Virus record (IMG/VR): IMGVR_UViG_3300034093_003299
Coordinates: 1-64,000 of that record
From: a virus
Lineage: Duplodnaviria; Caudoviricetes
DNA: 64,000 nucleotides
Strand: one strand, 5' to 3'
Part shown: piece by piece, positions 3,401 through 11,577 of the stretch
Position numbering within the stretch: position 1 is the stretch's first letter
Layout: each line of letters starts with the position of its first letter
Notes under the pieces: model-generated
The model's database searches: none
Told to the model about the DNA's origin: nothing
What the model saw: the letters and a program-made list of their open reading frames with translations, nothing else
Translations under genes and position numbers: made by a program

Positions 3401-4149
3401 ATTTGGCGTTTTGGACAAGAACAGGAGCATCAAATAATACAGTTGATACTGAAAAAGTAAGAATAACAGGTAATGGTAGTGTTTTAATAGGGGTAAATGG
3501 TGCGTATAATTCTTCAAGATTGCTTCAAGTAAAAGATGGTTTATTGATTGGAAATAGTTTTTATACTTTTGCTAGCATAGATACTAGTGGTACAGCAGAT
3601 TTAATATTATCATCTAATGCAAATCCAGCAAATCTAGGATCTAATAGCAATATTATATTTAAACTTGGTACGTCAGCAGGTGCTGGTCCAGAGGAAAGAA
3701 TGAGAATTGTTAGTAACGGTAATGTAGGTATAGGTACAACAAGTCCGACACAAAAGTTAGAAGTAAATGGCACAATTAAAGCAACATCTTTTGTGGGAAC
3801 ACTTTCTAGAACAAGCACAACTCAAACTATTACAGGAAATAGTGCTTTGACTATAGACGTTTCTGCTGCATATATACATATCATAACTGTTGAAGCTTCA
3901 GGAGGCGTCTTTGGCATATCTAGCGTAACATACAATAATAGAAAAGCTGGCCCGGAAGTCGATGAAATTATATTAATTTTTAAATGGCCAGCTAGTGGTA
4001 GTGGATCCATCACTATTTCGAATACGATTGGAGATATACCTTTTAATTATGGCAAAGCTACAGTAAGTCGCCTAACATCTTACAAAGGAACAACCGGCTT
4101 ATGGATTGCCGAAACAGTGGCATCAAATATAGACTACACAAATTTATAA
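1..4149 (+). CDS. Long tail fibre/adhesin-like virion protein, 5'-partial: Ser/Gly/Thr repeat stalk followed by about 13 GNVGIGTTSP-type modules
   Basis: Frame 1 is open from base 1 (GTSGSGGSS...) through 597 into the tracked 598..4149 ORF, so the real start lies upstream of the window. N(V/L/M/I)G(I)G/N motifs start at 556, 736, 940, 1237, 1471, 1765, 1999, 2209, 2449, 2671, 2905, 3118 and 3721. Confidence 0.8.
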   Translation, partial: GTSGSGGSSGTSGSSGTSGSGGSSGTSGTSGSGGSSGTSGSSGTSGSGGSSGTSGTSGSGGSSGTSGTSGSGGSSGTSGSSGTSGSGGSSGTSGTSGSGGSSGTSGTSGSGGSSGTSGSSGTSGSGGSSGTSGTSGSGGSSGTSGTSGTSGSSGTSVSVSGTTNYLVKFNSSSTITNSSVFDNGTNIGIGTTSPSAKIELYDGNFKISDGNRIIFGVSDPQIYGNSGVLTFRTNGTDRMYLNADGNLGIGVASPADLLHIYASAGTAAIRLAGAGVGTNTYRITGQLIGVSNTGFGIYDTTNSTYRLVIDGNGNVGIGTTTPVDLLTVQGNININYNSADANYVRRTFATNHAVGNRGANLWFGMVDGGGMTGMQIVNGASSSSGYNSQFITFVTHEGGISVDERMRITSVGNVGIGTTSPSVKLHVDGFFISKTLWSDTAAHSYWGNYSTAYGRLTWDTGLAWINATAGNVLYLGADGANKHVTIATSGNVGIGTSSPNAKLDVNGSIYLIGNIRNAWGDNLFNVAQYPYNTSTSPGYYMGFQTDANNRIFYISNKNEDGSATDPNGGIIFRTGGTPTNRMLISYTGNVGIGTTSPAQKLSVTDTLSITNSAGTQYLLMGNQDSTGVNNPAIIQASNGSLSFGGGTSWSGSGGTFTSTVFLSDAGNVGIGTTSPAYKLDVTGEIRQTGNNFWFSSARIGGDGSGNIDINYNNGSSPSFTWYNGGTSALARITSTGNMGIGTTSPASPLSVQSNAKQLRLQTTSGPTSYFTDIGSRYDSTHPFTIEVSNGAATATEYFGIYADAGGANNRIALLNGNVGINTTTTTNGQLVIYNSSGNTLSLQKAGGGPALIMGSDTTNYALIEAIASGGVRFYTGNGTLTEKMRIAADGNVGIGTSSPTAKLEIAGFSTGAGLKLNYGNSSGTIEAVNFIANGAANGVIGMQMVSAGVGDLWLGGSGGRTLTLYRDGNVGIGITSPTVKLTVSADVTDADVGQLRLVGSTSSAKMLSLGYQTTSNYGFISALIAGTGYSNLALQPNGGNVGIGTTSANNKLDVVSATANNGSPFAGCFFSGDDSSAMWRCAINLQHNANTTIAVESSIGLSFAPLSSTSSSFYGSAAIKAVRPNTTANNQDTDLAFWTRTGASNNTVDTEKVRITGNGSVLIGVNGAYNSSRLLQVKDGLLIGNSFYTFASIDTSGTADLILSSNANPANLGSNSNIIFKLGTSAGAGPEERMRIVSNGNVGIGTTSPTQKLEVNGTIKATSFVGTLSRTSTTQTITGNSALTIDVSAAYIHIITVEASGGVFGISSVTYNNRKAGPEVDEIILIFKWPASGSGSITISNTIGDIPFNYGKATVSRLTSYKGTTGLWIAETVASNIDYTNL

Positions 4150-4153
4150 TATT

Positions 4154-4181
4154 TAGATTTTTTTAAAAAAACTAGTATAAT
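4154..4181 (+). promoter_or_regulatory. sigma70-like promoter TAGATT-N16-TATAAT
   Basis: Perfect -10 TATAAT at 4176-4181, weak -35, 18 nt before ATG 4200. Confidence 0.5.
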
Positions 4182-4199
4182 CTTTTAAGATTAATCATT

Positions 4200-4400
4200 A
4201 TGGAAAATCAAACTAACCAAACACCGTCACCCGAATCACTCCAACAAGCTCAGCAGCCCCCGCTGACTCCAGAAGCAGCATTGCAGAATCTTGTATTTGC
4301 TGCTCGCCAAGCTCGACTTACGTATCAGGAGCATGGGGTTATTGATAATTGTATTCAGGTATTAGCAAAGCTTCTACCTCCTCAAGATAGACTCCAGTAA
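4200..4400 (+). CDS. Small hypothetical protein (66 aa) directly after the tail fibre; possible fibre assembly helper
   Basis: ATG ORF with its own promoter and terminator; the function is inferred from position only. Confidence 0.65.
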   Translation: MENQTNQTPSPESLQQAQQPPLTPEAALQNLVFAARQARLTYQEHGVIDNCIQVLAKLLPPQDRLQ

Positions 4401-4421
4401 CAAAAAAAAAGACTACTCTAC

Positions 4422-4453
4422 CCCACGCTTCGCGGCGTGGGTTTTTTGTTTTT
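4422..4453 (+). terminator. Rho-independent terminator
   Basis: CCCACGC-ttcgcg-GCGTGGG stem followed by TTTTTTGTTTTT. Confidence 0.85.
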
Positions 4454-4470
4454 AGATATTGAATTTATAG

Positions 4471-4477
4471 GTGTAAT
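4471..4477 (+). promoter_or_regulatory. GTGTAAT motif, candidate late promoter
   Basis: Lies between a terminator and ATG 4486 (8 nt gap); the same heptamer precedes the starts at 7297 and 59551 on the minus strand. Confidence 0.4.
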
Positions 4478-4485
4478 TAATAAAT

Positions 4486-5010
4486 ATGAAGGTCGTTGAT
4501 ATAGCTCAAGAGATTTATTTTGATTTAAATAGCCCAACGGATTTAAGTATTGCCGCTATTGCTTTTTGGGTTAGAGCTAATGTCGGGGCTTTGAATAGTC
4601 TTCTTTTCTCTAGTTTTGTGGTTAATGAAACTACTTATGAGATAGTAGATTCTGCTGATGACGTTACAGAAATAGATATCAATGCTGTGGCAATCTTAAA
4701 AAAGATGTATATTGTGCATAGATATGCTGTAATTATTAGATCTAAACTAACTGCTATAGACTCTGATGACGTTGTAGAGGTAACTCATAACGACACAAAG
4801 GTCAGAAAGCTGGATAAAAATCAAATCATAAAAACAGTAAGCGCCGAAAAGAAACAAGAGGAAGAAGCTCTCAAGTTGCTAGTCAGCGCATACAGAGGAA
4901 TGAAGTTTGTGCCCGGCCAAGTTGTCGGAGACGATATCGTCGCTGGGGCTTTCCCAGACAATTATCCTTACATCAGATCAGGAAGAACTTACGGCTACAC
5001 CGCTTATTGA
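4486..5010 (+). CDS. Hypothetical protein, possibly a head-tail adaptor/neck protein (174 aa)
   Basis: Clean ATG ORF with helical character, preceded by the candidate late motif; the function is a guess. Confidence 0.55.
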   Translation: MKVVDIAQEIYFDLNSPTDLSIAAIAFWVRANVGALNSLLFSSFVVNETTYEIVDSADDVTEIDINAVAILKKMYIVHRYAVIIRSKLTAIDSDDVVEVTHNDTKVRKLDKNQIIKTVSAEKKQEEEALKLLVSAYRGMKFVPGQVVGDDIVAGAFPDNYPYIRSGRTYGYTAY

Positions 5011-5204
5011 TTGTTTTCGTTTTCTTGAATAATTTTAGAGATTTGGTTTATCTCAAATTTAATTTTTTGCTTTAAAGACTTAAGCTCTGTAAGGGCGTCT
5101 AGTTTTTGTTTTTTTGTAGAGCTTCTGTCTAATTTTTTCAATAGCCTCTCAGCTTCCTTCTCGTAGAATCGAGAAGTCTTCATAATCATGTCGAAATCGT
5201 TCAT
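5004..5204 (-). CDS. Small coiled-coil hypothetical protein (66 aa)
   Basis: ATG ORF rich in K/E/L with a heptad-like pattern. Confidence 0.6.
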   Translation of the reverse strand: MNDFDMIMKTSRFYEKEAERLLKKLDRSSTKKQKLDALTELKSLKQKIKFEINQISKIIQENENNQ

Positions 5205-5206
5205 AT

Positions 5207-5233
5207 AAAAAAAGGGGAGGCTTTCGCCTCCCC
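5207..5233 (-). terminator. Rho-independent terminator
   Basis: GGGGAGGC-tttc-GCCTCCCC stem (5214-5233) with an A7 tract at 5207-5213, which reads as a U-tract on the minus strand. Confidence 0.85.
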
Positions 5234-5248
5234 CGATCCAGTTCGTCT

Positions 5249-5437
5249 TTATCGGCTGCGACGAACCGCTCGCTTCGTAAGACTTTTAGCGTCTGATGCG
5301 GTTGCGAAACCAAACTCACTATTAGCCATTCGCTTCATGTCTGTTCGGTGCTGGTTGATCTTCACTGTCTTCTGCACATCGGTAACAATAAAGTTCCCTG
5401 TAGACGATTCTATGACTGTAATTGTGTACTTGTTCAT
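5249..5437 (-). CDS. Small basic hypothetical protein (62 aa), own promoter and terminator
   Basis: ATG ORF flanked by a TTGACT promoter and a strong hairpin; Arg-rich C-terminus. Confidence 0.7.
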   Translation of the reverse strand: MNKYTITVIESSTGNFIVTDVQKTVKINQHRTDMKRMANSEFGFATASDAKSLTKRAVRRSR

Positions 5438-5446
5438 AACACTTAT

Positions 5447-5474
5447 ATTATCAGAGTCGAATCAAAGAAGTCAA
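5447..5474 (-). promoter_or_regulatory. Promoter TTGACT-N16-GATAAT, 9 nt before ATG 5437
   Basis: Read directly on the minus strand; fits the recurring N16 architecture. Confidence 0.6.
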
Positions 5475-6160
5475 ATTATTTTCTTTAGTTTTTCTAGGTT
5501 TTTTTGGAGCCTCTGAGCTTTGCTGGGCTTTTTTGTTTCGCCGATTGATTCAACGATAAGGCGAAATAACTCAACTACAGAAGTTTTAGAAAAATGGCTA
5601 TCCTCAGGAGGCGTAGGCGAAGTGTCTTGCCACTCAATAATGAAGTCTGCCAGATTTTCTAGTCTTGGTGTGTGATAGGCTTCTTCGCTATTTACTGGTG
5701 TAGAATAAAATTTCTTGTGAGTAAAATGTTCTTCTATTTGATATTTCTTGACATGAATTAGAATTCCTTTATTCTTTTTAATCCAAGCCGCCTCGTCTTT
5801 TTCGTATTCAGCGTGTCGAATATCTGGGACGCAAATTATTCTTGTTAATTCGGTTTTCGGCAGAGCTTTAATTCTTTTATTAAGCTTATTCACCCAATGG
5901 GTTCCTTTAGACTCTTCGCGCTTAACCTTTGCGTAAAAAACTAAAAAGTCTCTAATTGCAGACTTCTCTTTTCTTGAGCATGTTAATGGGTTAATGTTGT
6001 ACATAGACAACAAAGCTTCTCGGCACTCTTCTTTTAGATCGTCTGCTAAGGCCATGCGTTGAAATTCAAACCCGTTGTTTTCAAACAAAGTCCTTAACAA
6101 ATTGCACAAAGAGTCTTTGCCGTCTCCGGCTAGTCCTGATATTCCTATAATTTTATTCAT
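5471..6160 (-). CDS. Deoxynucleoside monophosphate kinase (T4 gp1-like P-loop kinase)
   Basis: N-terminal IIGISGLAGDGKD P-loop and later ICVPDIRH..E motif; start revised to ATG 6160, which gives an ATGA overlap with the HNH stop. Confidence 0.7.
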   Translation of the reverse strand: MNKIIGISGLAGDGKDSLCNLLRTLFENNGFEFQRMALADDLKEECREALLSMYNINPLTCSRKEKSAIRDFLVFYAKVKREESKGTHWVNKLNKRIKALPKTELTRIICVPDIRHAEYEKDEAAWIKKNKGILIHVKKYQIEEHFTHKKFYSTPVNSEEAYHTPRLENLADFIIEWQDTSPTPPEDSHFSKTSVVELFRLIVESIGETKKPSKAQRLQKNLEKLKKII

Positions 6161-6768
6161 TTTAAAAATACGCTCCAATCAATATGGTTTTTAAATTCAA
6201 TCGAATCACTTGCTAACCTAGGCGACATGGGCTTTGGTTTTCTAATAAGCTTTAGACCAGCTTCTTCTGGGGTTTTATTCGCTTTTTTAGAATTAATATC
6301 TTTATGGCACAGGACCATATTCTCCCAAGTGTTAAGACCGCCTCTTGACTTAGGAATTAAGTGGTCTGTATTCGCTTCTTCTTTTTTCAATTTGCGCCCC
6401 GTGAACTGGCAAATCCCTTGGTCTCTAATCCAAATATTATTTTTAGTTGGGCGAAATGTTTTAACAGGTATTTCAGAATACTTAGAAGAAGCAATAATTG
6501 TGGGCACTCTTATAGACATCTTACTTGTTCTAATTTCTAAATCACATTCTCTTACTGGAAGCTCAATCCACTCGCTCCATTTAACAGCTTGAATATCTTC
6601 TACCTCAGAGAAATTTGAAGAGCCGTCTCCATTTTTCTTGTATACAATATTTAAAGCGACACAATTGGGATGCACCAATTCGCTGAAAGCGTCTCTTACA
6701 GATTTCACCCCGATTGGTTGCCACCTTTTGTTGAGGCACAAGCAAATAATTTTATCTTCTACGCCCAT
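6157..6768 (-). CDS. HNH endonuclease (McrA/HNH_5-like)
   Basis: IRDQGICQFTG...TDHLIPKSRGG..TWENMVLCHKDINSKKANKTPEEAGL; N-terminal CLNKRWQPI. Start revised to ATG 6768, downstream of a promoter. Confidence 0.85.
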   Translation of the reverse strand: MGVEDKIICLCLNKRWQPIGVKSVRDAFSELVHPNCVALNIVYKKNGDGSSNFSEVEDIQAVKWSEWIELPVRECDLEIRTSKMSIRVPTIIASSKYSEIPVKTFRPTKNNIWIRDQGICQFTGRKLKKEEANTDHLIPKSRGGLNTWENMVLCHKDINSKKANKTPEEAGLKLIRKPKPMSPRLASDSIEFKNHIDWSVFLK

Positions 6769-6778
6769 CTCTTTAGAA

Positions 6779-6806
6779 AGTATAAGAGATTTTTTAATTA
6801 AGTCAA
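6779..6806 (-). promoter_or_regulatory. Promoter TTGACT-N16-TATACT, 10 nt before ATG 6768
   Basis: Near-consensus -35 and -10 read on the minus strand. Confidence 0.7.
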
Positions 6807-6849
6807 GATTTTTCTGGAATTTTGAAAGGTTAATTTTAAGATACATCTG

Positions 6850-7059
6850 ATGAACAGAACATCTAAGACAAGCACATCAACTAAAACATCCTCTAAGCCG
6901 ACCCCGAAGAAGGCGGTTAAGAAGGTCGCAACGGTAACGAAGCCGATCAAGAAGGCCGCAAAGAAGACTGCTCCAGTGCCAACTCCAGCGCCAACGCCAA
7001 AGACTGGCGGCGGTAAGGCCGCACCGGGAAGATCTGGTTCCTCGAAGAAGGGGAAGTGA
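6850..7059 (+). CDS. Lys/Ala/Thr/Pro-rich basic low-complexity protein (histone H1-tail-like), 69 aa
   Basis: KKAVKKVATVTKPIKKAAKKTAPVPTPAPTPK; no Asp or Glu residues; followed by a terminator. Confidence 0.65.
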   Translation: MNRTSKTSTSTKTSSKPTPKKAVKKVATVTKPIKKAAKKTAPVPTPAPTPKTGGGKAAPGRSGSSKKGK

Positions 7060-7066
7060 ACAACAC

Positions 7067-7093
7067 GGCGCGATTAAAAACCGCGCCTTTTTT
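7067..7093 (+). terminator. Rho-independent terminator
   Basis: GGCGCG-N9-CGCGCC followed by TTTTTT. Confidence 0.75.
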
Positions 7094-7096
7094 ATT

Positions 7097-7297
7097 TCAA
7101 TAAATTATAAAGTCTTCATCAGAGCAATCTTCCCAGTCAATAGATTCAGAAGCTTTAGAGTTCTTCTTCAATTGATTGTAGCACACGGCAAGCCTTTGCT
7201 TGGGGTTTGGGAACTCTTTGATCATAGAAGAATCTCCAGCGCATCTACTTACGAATTCTTTTTCTTTTTCTGCTTTTTTAGGATTGACTAGTGGCAT
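7097..7297 (-). CDS. Small phage protein with an F..RC..D...FP..KQR.AVC motif
   Basis: ATG ORF; the motif resembles small domains I recall from phage head-morphogenesis regions; preceded by GTGTAAT. Confidence 0.65.
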   Translation of the reverse strand: MPLVNPKKAEKEKEFVSRCAGDSSMIKEFPNPKQRLAVCYNQLKKNSKASESIDWEDCSDEDFIIY

Positions 7298-7306
7298 ATA
7301 AGATGA

Positions 7307-7313
7307 ATTACAC
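7307..7313 (-). promoter_or_regulatory. GTGTAAT motif, candidate late promoter
   Basis: Begins immediately after the stop at 7314 and lies 9 nt before ATG 7297. Confidence 0.4.
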
Positions 7314-7493
7314 TCAATTCAAAGACCTAACATCAAAAATATCAACAGCAATTAAAGCATTGCCATTAGATATCAAAAATGTATGCTCGTCTTTTACAGA
7401 TATAACTTCACCAGCCCATTCTCCATCTGGGTCTAGAACCTTAACGGTTTTTCCTACAAGTCTTGAGTTGATGTCAAGTTTTGTTTCTTTCAT
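7314..7493 (-). CDS. 59-aa SH3/Sm-like beta-barrel protein, absent from the ORF track
   Basis: Hand translation: MKETKLDINSRLVGKTVKVLDPDGEWAGEVISVKDEHTFLISNGNALIAVDIFDVRSLN*; ATGA overlap with the stop at 7490; fills the gap exactly. Confidence 0.75.
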   Translation of the reverse strand: MKETKLDINSRLVGKTVKVLDPDGEWAGEVISVKDEHTFLISNGNALIAVDIFDVRSLN

Positions 7494-7789
7494 TTTATTT
7501 TTATTTTTTTATCAGATGTGGGAAATGAAATATAAATATCAGAATAAGTAGAATTTGGATCGAGTATTCGTCCCAAAATATCTAAAGAATCTTTAGAGAA
7601 CTCATGAGATATTTCTAAATATTTTTTTTCAAAATTTTCTGTGCTTGGTTTATTTGAGCAATCGCAATTAGAAAACCCACTCAAGCAAAAAGACAAAGCC
7701 TCTACAAGCTGTTTAGATTTTGCGACCTCGGTGGGGTTAAATGAAATTGCCCTGCAAAATTCAATAAAGCCTTTAATTTCTAGTTCCAT
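7490..7789 (-). CDS. Hypothetical protein (99 aa, C-x-C motif)
   Basis: ATG ORF overlapping both neighbours in the same operon. Confidence 0.65.
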   Translation of the reverse strand: MELEIKGFIEFCRAISFNPTEVAKSKQLVEALSFCLSGFSNCDCSNKPSTENFEKKYLEISHEFSKDSLDILGRILDPNSTYSDIYISFPTSDKKIKIK

Positions 7790-8132
7790 GGTTAAACATT
7801 AATTCAATCGTTTTATACAATAATACATACACAAAATAAACAAAAAGTACAAATTGTATTTTTGAAGCAATCAAACATAGCCAAAACCCTAAGCAATACG
7901 GGCAGCTTAATAACTTCGTAAAAAAATTATTGTGCTTGTAATTTAAAAAATCAAAATAATTTACCCTTTGAGGGCTTTGAATCTTAAAACACTTATATTC
8001 AATCAAATTAGAAAAAGATATCAGATTAAACGTCTCGCCGTATTCAACGAAAAATTCAGTTTTATAAAGTAAAAAAGAAACAGCCGCGCAAGATGCGGCT
8101 TGAATTAAATTATCCTGTATGTCCATAGCCAC
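7773..8132 (-). CDS. DUF1360-like membrane protein
   Basis: KLLSCPYCLGFWL motif followed by a hydrophobic segment; the start may be ATG 8126. Confidence 0.55.
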   Translation of the reverse strand: MAMDIQDNLIQAASCAAVSFLLYKTEFFVEYGETFNLISFSNLIEYKCFKIQSPQRVNYFDFLNYKHNNFFTKLLSCPYCLGFWLCLIASKIQFVLFVYFVYVLLYKTIELMFNHGTRN

Positions 8133-8532
8133 CTTCTCCGCGTTTGGTTATTGGTAAGTTTACGGTTTGAACAAAATGAACGCCGCTGCAATGCTCGATT
8201 ATAATTTGAGCAATCTTGTCTCCAATTTTGACTTCGAAATCTGAATTGCTGTCTGTGTTGTATAGTATAACTCCAATATCGCCACGATAATCAGAATCAA
8301 TAACGCCGGCAAGTACATCGATGCCATTTTTGTAAGCCAATCCAGACCTCGGAGCAATCCTTCCATAATGATTCATGGGGATAGCCATGCTTACGTTGGT
8401 TTTTATTAATTTTCTACCAAACCTAGGAACCACAGTCTCTTCTGCGGCATATAGGTCATACCCAGCAGAAAACTGGGTTCCTTGAGTGGGCGCTTTAGCC
8501 GAAGCGCTAAGCAGTTTGATTGGTATGTCCAC
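8110..8532 (-). CDS. dut: Trimeric dUTPase
   Basis: All five motifs present: AGYDL, GRIAPRSGLA, GVIDSDYRG, GDKIAQ, RGEGGYGHTG. Start revised to GTG 8532, 6 nt after the -10. Confidence 0.97.
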   Translation of the reverse strand: MDIPIKLLSASAKAPTQGTQFSAGYDLYAAEETVVPRFGRKLIKTNVSMAIPMNHYGRIAPRSGLAYKNGIDVLAGVIDSDYRGDIGVILYNTDSNSDFEVKIGDKIAQIIIEHCSGVHFVQTVNLPITKRGEGGYGHTG

Positions 8533-8538
8533 GATTAC

Positions 8539-8566
8539 ATTATGCGTTTCACTCAAAAAAAGTCAA
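8539..8566 (-). promoter_or_regulatory. Promoter TTGACT-N16-CATAAT (divergent pair with 8575-8602)
   Basis: Read directly on the minus strand; 6 nt to GTG. Confidence 0.7.
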
Positions 8567-8574
8567 TATAAAAT

Positions 8575-8602
8575 TTGATTTTTGTTTCTGTTTTAGCATA
8601 TT
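8575..8602 (+). promoter_or_regulatory. Promoter TTGATT-N16-CATATT, 5 nt before ATG 8608
   Basis: Fits the recurring architecture. Confidence 0.55.
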
Positions 8603-8607
8603 AAGTC

Positions 8608-9015
8608 ATGAACATTATTGATAGCTATCAGTTGCTTAACGAATATTTTAATAATCACACTTGTTTCAACTTAAAGAAAAATAGAAAAGAAGTCCTTTTG
8701 GTCTCTGATGATGAAAACGCTGAAAATGCGGCTCTTACTTGCGCGTTGAAAGAAATGGAGAAAGCCAACGTTCTTCGTTCGTGCGTGGTAGATGGGCAAG
8801 ATTATTGGGTCTTGATAAAGCCTCTTGAGTCTTTTTCGCAAACCGTGGAGATCAGCGGCCTAGTTTCCGCAGCGATAGCGTCGGTAATAAACGACATGTG
8901 CAAAGCTCTCGGGAGCGACTCTGAAAAGTGCGATGTTATGAACGTCACCGAAAAAGATTTAAAAAATTTAATTTACATAGCTTCGAAAGCCTCTCCAGAC
9001 TCTTTAAAAAAATAA
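8608..9015 (+). CDS. Hypothetical protein (135 aa)
   Basis: ATG ORF with a promoter; no recognised motif. Confidence 0.7.
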   Translation: MNIIDSYQLLNEYFNNHTCFNLKKNRKEVLLVSDDENAENAALTCALKEMEKANVLRSCVVDGQDYWVLIKPLESFSQTVEISGLVSAAIASVINDMCKALGSDSEKCDVMNVTEKDLKNLIYIASKASPDSLKK

Positions 9016-9016
9016 T

Positions 9017-9045
9017 TTGACTTTTGCCCGGTCTGCTGTAAGAAT
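9017..9045 (+). promoter_or_regulatory. Promoter TTGACT-N17-AAGAAT; predicted start near 9052
   Basis: -35 begins 1 nt after the upstream stop; no start codon follows; predicted +1 coincides with the 5' strand of a long-range helix. Confidence 0.5.
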
Positions 9046-9051
9046 CAGATA

Positions 9052-9487
9052 GACTGTTGTGCAGAGGTAGCCGAGCGAAACCACGCTCACTTAAGGATAG
9101 ACTCCTTATTTTAAAAATCGTAATAGATCAACAAGCCCGTCAAAAGACGATAGGAAATTGGAAGAAATTCCAGCGTGCGTTCGGGAGAGGCCGCGTCGTA
9201 AATGAGTCCTATTTAAAACTGCTAGAAACTTAATTCCTCTCAAAGGAAAAGGCGATGGTAGATGTCTGAAAAAAAGTCACTGCGTAAACAACAGTCGGAA
9301 ATAGCCAAAGGTAGTCACTAGCTAAACGGATTTGCTAAAGCCGGAGATGCGATGACTGATGTGGGTACTTTTGGGTGAATAATTACTTAGATATAAAGTC
9401 TAAGTTGACCTGCTATTGCTTAATTCCAACTCAAGGAAAAGTTATAAGGCGATGGTATGAAAGGAAAGTCTCTGTAGAGTTACAGAG
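9052..9487 (+). ncRNA. Candidate large structured non-coding RNA or long structured 5' leader of the sigma gene
   Basis: 489-nt gap with no ORF in the track, in an otherwise gap-free genome. Helix GACTGTTGT(9052-60)/ACAACAGTC(9288-96) plus GCAG/CTGC; hairpins GAGCG/CGCTC, TAAGGA/TCCTTA, CGTC-AAAA-GACG, TGGAA-GAAA-TTCCA, ACTTAGA/TCTAAGT and CTCTGTA/TACAGAG; duplicated internal module. Confidence 0.6.
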
Positions 9488-9504
9488 CATCAAGGATAAA
9501 GTTT

Positions 9505-10113
9505 ATGTTAAAAGTACAATCTATAAAAGACAATGACCTGCCTTTGGTCGAGAAGATCAAACTCAGCAACTGCAACGTTAGCTTCGAGACGTTATCTAAT
9601 TCATATGATAACTTCTACTTTTCTATAGCAAGAAAATACTCCCAAACTTTAATTAGAATGGGCATGAGCAAAGAAGAGATTAAATTTGAAAAAGATTTTA
9701 TCCTTTATAAAGCTATTCAGTCTTTCGACGTTAATCAAAAAACTAAATTTTCCACTTGGTTTTGCAACTGCTCAAGATATCATTTTTTAAATTATATTAA
9801 CTCTAATAAGAAATATACTTTAAACGAAGGCTTCAGAGTAGACACTTATTTTAATAAAGATATTTTATCTGTCTCTGATAAAAACACAGAGATGTACGAC
9901 TTCTTGTCTTCTATGCTTTCTTCTTTTAAAGATAAAAGGATTAACGAAGTTTACCGTCTAAGGTATTTTTCTAACTCATCTAAGTTAACTACTTGGAATA
10001 AAATTGCTAAGAAATTGAACATCAGCACCCAAACCGCTATCAATCTGCACGAAAAAGCCAAGGAGTTTTTGAAAACGAAAATCGTAAGCAAAAATTCTTT
10101 CGATTTGGTTTGA
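9505..10113 (+). CDS. Phage-encoded sigma70-family RNA polymerase sigma factor
   Basis: Region 2-like segment KAIQSFD...KFSTWFCNCSRYHFLNY and region 4 HTH TWNKIAKKLNISTQTAINLHEKAKEFLK. Confidence 0.8.
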   Translation: MLKVQSIKDNDLPLVEKIKLSNCNVSFETLSNSYDNFYFSIARKYSQTLIRMGMSKEEIKFEKDFILYKAIQSFDVNQKTKFSTWFCNCSRYHFLNYINSNKKYTLNEGFRVDTYFNKDILSVSDKNTEMYDFLSSMLSSFKDKRINEVYRLRYFSNSSKLTTWNKIAKKLNISTQTAINLHEKAKEFLKTKIVSKNSFDLV

Positions 10114-10137
10114 CTTTTCTTTTTCTGTAGCCATAAT
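10110..10137 (+). promoter_or_regulatory. Promoter TTGACT-N16-CATAAT, 8 nt before ATG 10146
   Basis: Read directly; overlaps the sigma gene stop. Confidence 0.75.
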
Positions 10138-10145
10138 ATTCTTGC

Positions 10146-10442
10146 ATGAGTGATGTAAAGACTGAAAATAAATGGGATACGCGTGAATTGGGAGCCTTGT
10201 GGTTGAAAATCAGCAAGGACAAGTCTCAAAAGTATATGACTGGTCATATTAATTCTTCGCTAGAAGGAAAAATTGACGTTGTTATCTTTTCTAACAAGGA
10301 AAAGAAATCTGAAAAGTCTCCAGACTTTAGGATTTATGCTTCTGATCGGCCAGACAAGCAAAAGGAACAAACCGCGACAACCTCGTCAACGCCAGCAAAG
10401 AAGGCCCAACCAGTGGCCGATGACGACGATGGTGTTTTGTAA
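10146..10442 (+). CDS. DUF736-like protein, probable ssDNA-binding protein
   Basis: LGALW.K.SKD..QKYMTG and NKEKKSEKSPDFRIY motifs; flexible linker and SSB-like acidic tail DDDDGVL. Confidence 0.6.
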   Translation: MSDVKTENKWDTRELGALWLKISKDKSQKYMTGHINSSLEGKIDVVIFSNKEKKSEKSPDFRIYASDRPDKQKEQTATTSSTPAKKAQPVADDDDGVL

Positions 10443-10464
10443 TAAAAAATAGAAAATCTTTTTC

Positions 10465-10494
10465 ACCTACCTATAACAATAGGTAGGTTTTTTT
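10465..10494 (+). terminator. Rho-independent terminator-like hairpin abutting the next ATG
   Basis: Perfect 10-bp stem ACCTACCTAT-aaca-ATAGGTAGGT followed by a T-tract ending at 10494. Confidence 0.8.
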
Positions 10495-11577
10495 ATGCAA
10501 TTCGCTGTTCACGTTCCTCTAAATTCTCTTAGCTTTGGGCAAGTAAGTTTTAACTTGCTGTATGAGTTCTATAAAATGGGGCTCAATCCATCTATTTTCA
10601 AAGCTTCTGACCAAAATATAGATTTTTCAGCATTTGATTTTGAGCAAGAATTTATTGATTGGATAATTAAAAACAACAACGAATCATTCTTAAAGCACAA
10701 CAGGAACATCCCGTGCATTAGGCTTTGGCATATTAATGACTCTATAAGGTCATACTCAAATAAACAAATTCTCCTTACTTTCCACGAAACAGATCAGATA
10801 ACTCCAATAGAAACAAATATTTTAAAAAATAGCACCGTTTGTGTTACCTCTAACCACACAAAAGAAGTCTTCTCAAATTCTGGTATTGATTCTACAGTTA
10901 CTAACCTTGGCTTTGACTCTAGACATTTTAAAGTAACAAATAAAAAATACTTTGATGATGGAAGAATCACTTTTAACTTATGTGGCAAATACGAAAAGAG
11001 AAAGCACCACGCTAAAATAATTAAAACTTGGATAAGCAAATTTGGAAAGAATAAAAAATACTCGCTCCAATGTTCTATTCATAATCAGTTTTATCAAGAC
11101 CCTAATGAATTAAAATCTATATACTCTAGTATCCTTGATGGCAAAACAGTTTTCAATGTATCTTTTTTATCTTCGATGCCAAAAAATTCAACATACAATG
11201 ACTTCTTGAATTCTGCTGATATCATTCTAGGAATGTCTGGAGCCGAAGGCTGGGGGCTTCCAGAATTTCAATCTGTTGCGCTAGGTAAACATGCGGTTAT
11301 ATTGAACGCTACTGCATACAAAGAGTGGGCGAATAAAGACAACTCAATACTTGTTGAACCAAAAGGAAAGATTGAAGTTTATGATGGGAAGTTCTTTTCT
11401 AAAGGAATCCCATTTAATCAAGGGAATATTTTTGATTTTAATGAAGACAGTTTTATTGCCGGGTGCGAAGAGGCGATTAAAAGAGTAGAAAACGACAGAG
11501 TCAACCATCAAGGGCTAAAAATGCAAGAACAATTCAAGTACTCTTCAACAGCAAATAAATTACTATCTTTGATTTAA
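10495..11577 (+). CDS. Glycosyltransferase family 4 (GT-B)
   Basis: GKYEKRKHH and SGAEGWGLPEFQSVALGKHAVI (EX7E-like) motifs. Confidence 0.85.
   Translation: MQFAVHVPLNSLSFGQVSFNLLYEFYKMGLNPSIFKASDQNIDFSAFDFEQEFIDWIIKNNNESFLKHNRNIPCIRLWHINDSIRSYSNKQILLTFHETDQITPIETNILKNSTVCVTSNHTKEVFSNSGIDSTVTNLGFDSRHFKVTNKKYFDDGRITFNLCGKYEKRKHHAKIIKTWISKFGKNKKYSLQCSIHNQFYQDPNELKSIYSSILDGKTVFNVSFLSSMPKNSTYNDFLNSADIILGMSGAEGWGLPEFQSVALGKHAVILNATAYKEWANKDNSILVEPKGKIEVYDGKFFSKGIPFNQGNIFDFNEDSFIAGCEEAIKRVENDRVNHQGLKMQEQFKYSSTANKLLSLI

Follow-up and report, generated by a model that had tools for sequence, protein, structure and literature searches.

A candidate large structured RNA family with twin modules beside a sigma-like gene in uncultured phages

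The locus

The DNA analysed here, called the window throughout, is a 64,000-nucleotide (nt) stretch of the IMG/VR virus record IMGVR_UViG_3300034093_003299 (positions 1 to 64,000; Duplodnaviria, Caudoviricetes), and its genes (tail fibre, DnaE-type polymerase, helicase, ribonucleotide reductase and a glycosyltransferase cluster) are those of a large uncultured phage, for which no cultured relative was found in the phage collection. The present study concerns the gap at 9016-9504, which comprises 489 bp between two + strand open reading frames (ORFs) of 135 amino acids (aa) (8608-9015) and 202 aa (9505-10113). Comparison with related sequences indicates that positions 9052-9458 of this gap almost certainly belong to a real, uncatalogued family of structured RNA, in which two similar modules vary together from lineage to lineage. 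The features of the locus are as follows.

8608-9015 (+): ORF135, gene for an acidic protein of 135 aa; a homologue precedes the RNA in nearly every copy for which the flank is long enough
9017-9045 (+): sigma-70-type promoter of the RNA according to a consensus scan, with -35 box TTGACT (9017-22), a 17-nt spacer containing TG, and -10 box AAGAAT (9040-45)
9052-9458 (+): RNA core, 407 nt (386-420 nt in 70 copies)
9505-10113 (+): sigma-70-family-like gene, 202 aa, with ribosome-binding site AAGGA at 9492-96
10146-10442 (+): DUF736-like gene, 98 aa, the last gene of the unit (Pfam DUF736 25 bits, above the cut-off)
10465-10494 (+): strong intrinsic terminator, abutting the next start codon (glycosyltransferase ATG 10495)

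The RNA core is non-coding, because there are 3-15 stop codons in every + frame (70 copies) and its variability lacks a three-base periodicity. The insertions and deletions in the RNA alignment are not multiples of three, and no ORF of the gap is kept in the relatives, in agreement with a preliminary description of the window that had reported the gap as free of ORFs. The predicted fold of the + strand is better than that of shuffled sequences (z-score -2.6; 0 of 100 shuffles as good), whereas the - strand gave a z-score of -0.26.

Relatives and conservation

A search with the sigma-like protein retrieved 28 IMG/VR loci (61-100% amino-acid identity), and the upstream gap of all 28 loci aligned with the window from about position 9051 onward, with 74-94% nucleotide identity. 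Since this exceeds the identity of the sigma coding sequence (68-80%) and of ORF135 (59-78%), conservation within the locus is highest in the gap. A profile search with the sigma-like proteins added a distant group (39% identity). Two conserved DNA patterns, which were used to scan for further copies, matched 34 and 35 stretches in IMG/VR and 77 in metagenome contigs (lakes, estuaries and the TARA ocean survey). After the removal of duplicates, 72 distinct full-length copies were obtained from viral and metagenome contigs of lakes and ocean, forming about 40 clusters at 12% distance. The copies fall into two clades, clade I, to which the window belongs, and clade II, which is mostly marine. 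The exact-pattern scan of one genome for each of 185,579 prokaryote species gave 0 matches, a scan that diverged copies could escape. Among cultured phages, blastn with the region, with clade II copies and with the copy of one outlying contig (L152, see below) found no match, and tblastn with the sigma-like protein found one weak, unrelated match only.

The RNA was not recognised as a catalogued family. The search of the whole window against Rfam 15 gave nothing at the gathering threshold, a permissive search of 8950-9560 gave chance matches only (E >= 1.5), and no match fell on the RNA in 10 diverse relatives, or on a clade II copy at E up to 5. The unmatched families include GOLLD, ROOL, OLE, HEARO, raiA, 6S RNA, RNase P, transfer-messenger RNA (tmRNA), the riboswitches, T-box, group I and II introns and small ribozymes, and ARAGORN found no transfer RNA (tRNA) or tmRNA in the window. 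Two known classes were also rejected by their organization. A group I or II intron does not fit, because ORF135 has its own stop codon and the sigma gene its own ribosome-binding site and ATG, both being complete with a promoter between them. 6S RNA is a rod of about 180 nt with a central bubble, whereas the consensus here is multi-branched with two domains. As for riboswitches, no terminator was found, and the Shine-Dalgarno sequence or AUG is sequestered in some subgroups only, being free in the window. The RNA agrees with the description of large ornate RNAs (more than 300 nt, covarying helices, tertiary-contact motifs, non-coding), a group that is descriptive and not a homologous family.

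Predicted fold and covariation

Structure statistics were computed from one alignment of 14 non-redundant clade I sequences. RNAalifold predicted 73 pairs for clade I, 36 of which have compensatory changes, and a fuller structure drawn by hand has 103 pairs in 23 helices including one pseudoknot. This structure was compared with controls in which pairing partners were slid by 1-3 alignment columns or in which the alignment was shuffled.

Cells paired: observed 87.4%; slid 36-50%; shuffled 78.4%
Pairs changed on both sides: observed 46; slid 10-21; shuffled 25.9 (0 of 500 shuffles reach 46)
Covariation score: observed 0.284; slid 0.055-0.098; shuffled 0.136

An independent RNAalifold prediction for clade II (77 pairs, 27 compensated) recovered P1b, P2, P3, P4a, P5, P6, P7 and both modules with different sequences. 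A naive all-against-all covariation scan for tertiary pairs was swamped by the two-clade phylogeny and was not used. The predicted fold thus drawn has two domains, some 20 helices, GNRA loops and at least one pseudoknot, with the 5' end inside a long-range helix. Apart from the modules, its elements are as follows.

9052-9064 (+): P1, 5' strand, pairing with 9280-9296 in 9 bp plus 4 bp (GCAG/CTGC) around a GUAA internal loop; closes domain 1
9066-9071 (+): P2, 5' strand GGUAGC, pairing weakly with the AAGUC region at 9274-9279
9073-9088 (+): P3, hairpin GAGCG/CGCUC, 100% paired with G-C to A-U swaps; GUGAGG/CCUCAC in clade II
9093-9107 (+): P4, hairpin AAGGA/UCCUU, 3 of 5 pairs changed on both sides; absent from clade II
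9117-9128 (+): P4a, hairpin, which in most relatives in the alignments reads CUC-GUAA-GAG and has a GNRA loop
9136-9139 (+): PK1, 5' strand CCCG, pseudoknot with CGGG (9182-9185) in the P7 loop
9150-9212 (+): three-way unit of P5 (9150-54/9208-12), P6 (9159-72) and P7 (9173-77/9192-96)
9305-9374 (+): P8, the long domain 2 helix, whose inner core does not vary (AGCUAAACGG..CUAAAGCCGGAGAUGCGAUGACUGA)
9385-9405 (+): P9, hairpin ACUUAGA/UCUAAGU, three pairs changed on both sides
9470-9487 (+): P10, hairpin that follows the RNA core and precedes the ribosome-binding site; lineage-specific, with no U-tract after it

The 9-bp inverted repeat 9052-60/9288-96, which a repeat search also detected, forms P1a, and all nine of its pairs (9/9) are changed on both sides among the 14 relatives. 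In clade II, P1 is found at the same place as UCUUUGUU..GCGG / CCGC..AACAAAGA. The duplex energy of P1 strands (mean -26.3 kcal/mol for native pairs, -21.4 kcal/mol for cross pairs) is too crude a test to add support. For P2, only one-sided changes were seen in clade I by RNAalifold, and GCUU/AAGU was predicted independently in clade II. P5, P6 and P7 have changes on both sides and are formed by other sequences in clade II. In the window, P6 carries a GAAA tetraloop at 9164-67. In P8, 10 of the 13 outer pairs are changed on both sides and 97% of the cells are paired. The pseudoknot is suggested by its outer pair, C9136:G9185, which reads C:G in 90 unique copies, U:A in 4 others (at least 2 lineages) and never C:A or U:G; the remaining three pairs are invariant, and this outer pair is the sole evidence for PK1. 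A closing helix of domain 2 through AAAGUC (9463-68) was considered and dropped, as it is missing in several subgroups. P10 has compensating changes within the subgroup of the window, and other subgroups carry different hairpins in its place.

Much of this had been anticipated. The preliminary description had proposed the 9-bp helix extended by GCAG/CTGC, together with hairpins that include one GAAA tetraloop, and the changes on both sides of P1a and the covariation in P3, P4, P5, P6, P7, P8 and P9 bear this out. The promoter that it had placed at TTGACT, with a start near 9052, was recovered by the scan (TTGACT-17-AAGAAT plus TG), and conservation sets in at about 9051. Conservation and covariation in related genomes, on which it had made its proposal depend, are both strong, and there is no Rfam family match. 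The family is well defined, since its ends are clear, 72 distinct copies are available, covariation is dense and a pseudoknot is present, and it is widespread in lake and ocean viromes.

The twin modules

The two modules were detected as direct repeats (CTTAATTCC..CTCAA..GGAAAAG at 9229 and 9419, and AAGGCGATGGTA at 9249 and 9446), and both are kept in every relative, each as a long irregular hairpin.

9219-9261 (+): module A, outer helix CUGCUA/UGGUAG; internal loop GAAA versus GCGA; CUU/AAG helix; top helix UUCC/GGAA; loop UCUCAAA
9410-9458 (+): module B, outer helix CUGCUA/UGGUAU; CUU/AAG helix; middle AA/UU; top helix UUCC/GGAA; loop AACUCAA

In each module, the predicted order is an outer helix X/Y' (CUGCUA/UGGUAG), an internal loop, the CUU/AAG helix, the top helix and a loop with C-N-C-A-A. 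The internal loop has GAAA (module A) or UUG (module B) as its 5' strand and GCGA as its 3' strand. CTGCTA has its partner in TGGTAG, downstream and within GGCGATGGTAG. At the three central X/Y' positions, pairing is seen in 70/70 copies of module A and in 65-67/70 copies of module B, with GC/GU and UG/UA variants, and compensated versions were found as CUGCCA/UGGCAG (L130), CUACUA/UGGUGG (L008) and CUGCU/AGCAG (L083). Through GCUA, X has a second complement in the UAGC conserved at both domain entries (9068-71, 9301-05), although changes there are uncompensated; an alternative pairing of X with the upstream UAGC is possible.

The presence of the module in two copies, proposed in the preliminary description, is therefore seen both in the repeat search and in its retention in every relative. 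The pairing then suggested, between GGTAG and CTGCT, was not upheld; as described above, CTGCTA pairs with the downstream TGGTAG, and the AGGTAG at 9309 is part of P8. Of the duplicated core that was envisaged, only the repetition of two modules of about 45 nt stood: the duplication is confined to them, and the two domains of about 200 nt are not duplicates of each other.

The 3' block of the module comprises AAG, the internal-loop strand and Y', and at least 15 versions of it were counted among the lineages. These are, among others, AAGGCGAUGGUAG, ..GGCUG, AAGGCAAUGGUGG, AAGGUGAUGGUGG, AAGGAGAUGG.., and further AAGGUGGCGGCAAA, AAGACUAGUGGUC, AAGCUGGUAGUAC, AAGGAUAAGCAGU, AAGGCAAGCAGU and AAGGUAAGCAG. 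Nevertheless, modules A and B of one RNA share the same version, as two blocks have an identity of 0.96 when they come from one RNA and of 0.63 when they come from different RNAs; in the window, the 3' block of module B, AAGGCGAUGGUA, is identical to that of module A. The features that distinguish A from B (the GAAA versus UUG linker and the top helices) are fixed across lineages. Pairing with X appears to account for part of this concerted change, not for the matched bases of the internal loop. Three explanations are possible: a co-evolving partner shared by both modules, pairing that is swapped or intermolecular, and gene conversion in short patches. The variable, lineage-specific sequence of the modules favours a macromolecule that evolves with them over an unchanging metabolite as the partner, and the concerted change provides a sharp handle for finding that partner.

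The module block was also considered as a genome-wide promoter or operator motif and was rejected, since its occurrence elsewhere in the 64-kb window is at chance level. A third, partial look-alike, GCGATGACTGATGT (9349-9362, inside P8), has 79% identity to the module block GCGATGGTAGATGT and causes a chance match to a C/D-box small nucleolar RNA in Rfam.

Transcription unit and neighbouring genes

The predicted transcription start (about 9051-52) is the first base of P1. The -35 box is constant in all clade I relatives and the spacer is variable. The scan found no + strand promoter or terminator in 9046-9504, that is, up to the sigma ATG at 9505, as the preliminary description had held in noting neither a U-tract after 9470-9487 nor a promoter before this ATG. 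Because no such signal separates the RNA from the sigma gene, the RNA is predicted to be the first ~450 nt of the sigma mRNA in the clade of the window. In clade I, the sigma start lies 20-50 nt 3' of module B. In several subgroups, a hairpin 3' of module B encloses the Shine-Dalgarno sequence (GUUUCC..GGAAAC) or the AUG, and the Shine-Dalgarno sequence of the window is free.

The terminator after the DUF736-like gene consists of the hairpin CACCTACCTATAACAATAGGTAGG and seven T, preceded by a conserved ATAGAAA (10455-10497). The hairpin and T-run are almost invariant, occurring at the same place in the window, L002, L023, L026, L090, L104, L108, L135, L140, L142, L160 and L147, and were found in 12/12 clade I lineages examined; the terminator is missing in several clade II lineages. 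The absence of an intervening signal in clade I and this conserved terminator suggest that the RNA, the sigma gene and the DUF736-like gene form a transcription unit of about 1.45 kb. Expression of the glycosyltransferase gene after the terminator would require either read-through or a promoter inside the hairpin. The -35 box TTGACTTTT occurs 5 times in the window, about 2 being expected by chance, and heads several of its units (8558-8566 (-), 9017 (+), 10110 (+) and 26326 (+)).

Over some 90 unique loci, the order of ORF135 homologue, promoter, RNA, sigma gene, DUF736-like gene and glycosyltransferase gene is nearly fixed. ORF135 has no Pfam or PHROG family. Its AlphaFold2 (AF2) model has a predicted local distance difference test (pLDDT) score of 85.8, and weak Foldseek and hidden Markov model (HMM) matches to winged-helix regulators (MarR/MecI/PadR) were obtained, so that a winged helix is predicted at its N-terminus. 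For the 202-aa protein, the matches are to PHROG sigma families (E = 2e-7) and, below the cut-off, to Pfam Sigma70_r2 (20.1 bits); a profile of 12 homologues searched against PDB found sigma factors only (best E = 6e-4), and the label "sigma-like" seems fair. The DUF736-like gene is always 3' of the sigma gene and has its own promoter-like site (10110-10137); its product is a small beta domain, for which the fold search gave no informative match. In a few lineages (L098/L147/L150, and L020 at 2680-2980), 170-320 nt of extra non-coding sequence lies between the RNA and the sigma gene, which in L020 contains a repeated CGGAACC(C)TAACGAAA motif.

Possible functions

We tentatively read the RNA as a cis-acting regulatory leader of the sigma operon. 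The fixed position of the RNA, the lack of an intervening signal in clade I and the proximity of module B to the start codon suggest this, as do the transcription-related neighbours and the operator-like twin sites for one, probably dimeric, partner. In such a leader, a single partner evolving together with the RNA would dock equivalently at either module; the simplest candidate is a phage protein acting as a dimer, for instance the winged-helix protein encoded by the adjacent gene or the sigma-like protein itself. When bound to module B, the 3' strand of which ends 20-50 nt before the start codon, the partner would set the level of sigma translation, and the sigma level would in turn set the timing of later transcription. 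Given the fixed slot beside phage transcription genes, a role in gene timing is directly testable.

Several observations weigh against a leader. A length of about 405 nt with some 20 predicted helices far exceeds known protein- or ligand-responsive leaders, there is no conserved expression platform (the Shine-Dalgarno sequence of the window being free), and short-patch gene conversion could equally yield the concerted change of the modules. The link between the RNA and the sigma gene is also not absolute. In clade II, a P-loop kinase gene is inserted between them, overlapping the sigma start, and the interval from the RNA to the kinase gene contains promoter-like sites (TTTAAA-16-TATAAT or TTGACT-18-TAATAT); the window has a homologue of this kinase (GxxGxGKD motif) 3 kb upstream, at 5471-6178 (-). 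In the contig L152 (Ga0315903_10006874, 3945-9214), the RNA (~6560-6975) follows a near-consensus promoter, TTGACA-17-CATAAT, and adjoins a tyrosine integrase gene, opposite PARG-like and helicase genes, with no sigma gene or ORF135 nearby.

A stand-alone stable non-coding RNA, made early from a strong promoter of its own, processed off the sigma transcript and acting in trans, is possible too, at a probability somewhat below that of the leader. It might, for example, bind host RNA polymerase, the phage sigma or a host factor, or form a multi-copy RNA particle in the manner of large ornate RNAs. The consensus promoter with its start at the foot of P1 would suit such an RNA, as would the size, the complexity and the compact, closed architecture, in which GNRA loops and a pseudoknot occur, the conservation above that of the flanking genes, and the lack of a conserved expression platform. 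The RNA is, moreover, kept despite the kinase insertion with its promoter-like sites in clade II, and in L152 without the sigma gene. The identical X and Y' strands of both modules permit swapped or intermolecular pairing, and GOLLD, ROOL and OLE are reported as homo-oligomers (bioRxiv 10.1101/2024.12.08.627333). However, no terminator follows the core in any lineage scanned, so that the 3' end would need processing, and the very tight linkage to ORF135 and the sigma gene suggests a local role. L152, furthermore, is a single metagenome contig of mosaic guanine-cytosine content; it may have arisen by chimeric assembly or may be another mobile element in which the RNA resides.

The preliminary description had offered a choice between a new class of ornate phage RNA and a tandem two-domain leader that regulates the sigma gene. 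A new class agrees with the evidence, with which a leader is also compatible; the tandem part did not hold, the domains not being duplicates. A more doubtful proposal is that the RNA is a new large phage class in which the modules are co-evolving recognition surfaces that control the phage sigma or host RNA polymerase, either in an RNA-protein particle with the neighbouring transcription proteins or by self-assembly through swapped module pairings. If true, this would be an RNA-based layer of phage transcription timing without a described counterpart.

An improbable alternative is a processive antitermination RNA like put of phage HK022, which would carry polymerase through the terminator after the DUF736-like gene into the 24-kb downstream block. 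The likeness to putL and putR is one of position, as both are encoded in cis behind an early phage promoter with two stem-loops and a downstream terminator; here, the + strand block 8.6-34.6 kb is headed by an early-type promoter with the RNA as its first element, the RNA contains a pair of similar hairpins, and a conserved strong terminator abuts the next start codon 1.4 kb downstream. However, put is about 70 nt, and the RNA here is many times larger (about six times). The terminator is missing in several clade II lineages, and further promoter-like sites lie downstream.

A large ribozyme, for example one cleaving itself off the sigma mRNA, is very unlikely. The size, the pseudoknot, the invariant unpaired stretches (AAGCCCGU..AAAAGAC and CUAAAGCCGGAGAUGCGAUGACUGA) and the GNRA loops are typical of catalytic RNAs, but no Rfam ribozyme or intron model matched even at E up to 10, the RNA is not inside a gene (the flanking ORFs are complete), and no conserved candidate cleavage site was identified. 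A DNA-level control region, for which two identical 12-nt direct repeats 197 bp apart could serve as protein operators, and an overlooked coding gene (the 58-aa ORF at 9057-9233) or one with recoded stops are essentially excluded by dozens of strand-specific compensatory pair changes and, for coding, by the stop codons, the lack of codon periodicity and the insertions and deletions described above.

Comparison with known RNAs

Of the known RNAs, GOLLD and ROOL come nearest by description: the RNA resembles them in its hundreds of nt, many helices, GNRA loops and pseudoknot, and in being phage-borne and mainly environmental (lakes). It differs from them in that it matches their Rfam models at no threshold tried, is smaller (~405 nt), has twin modules that change in concert, and lies in the window not beside tRNAs but in a fixed slot between winged-helix-like and sigma-like genes. 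New classes of large bacterial and phage RNAs with complex folds are rare, and past ones were ribozymes, riboswitches or unexpected RNA assemblies; the size of this RNA is suited to cryo-electron microscopy of the RNA alone.

Tandem-aptamer leaders (the glycine riboswitch and tandem T-box or riboswitch arrangements) likewise have two similar units 5' of a gene, with the 3' unit near the ribosome-binding site. The likeness is in outline only, as just ~45 nt of each ~200-nt domain is duplicated here, without an Rfam riboswitch or T-box match or a conserved expression platform.

Structured RNA candidates have been extracted from the same source, the intergenic regions of IMG/VR, with the same covariation logic (Fremin et al. 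2023; PMC10690425). That study describes 8,495 candidates of 29-151 nt, and its text does not mention sigma. Fragments of the present RNA may be among those candidates, and no full-length description of it was found.

Other observations

Five giant ORFs (925-3232 aa) occupy the minus-strand block of the window at 34899-59551 (-) and have no PHROG family. Among the clade II contigs, L083 (8332-8712) has a single tRNA gene together with a tmRNA gene truncated by the locus end, and L063 (9293-11978) carries an array of 8 tRNA genes.

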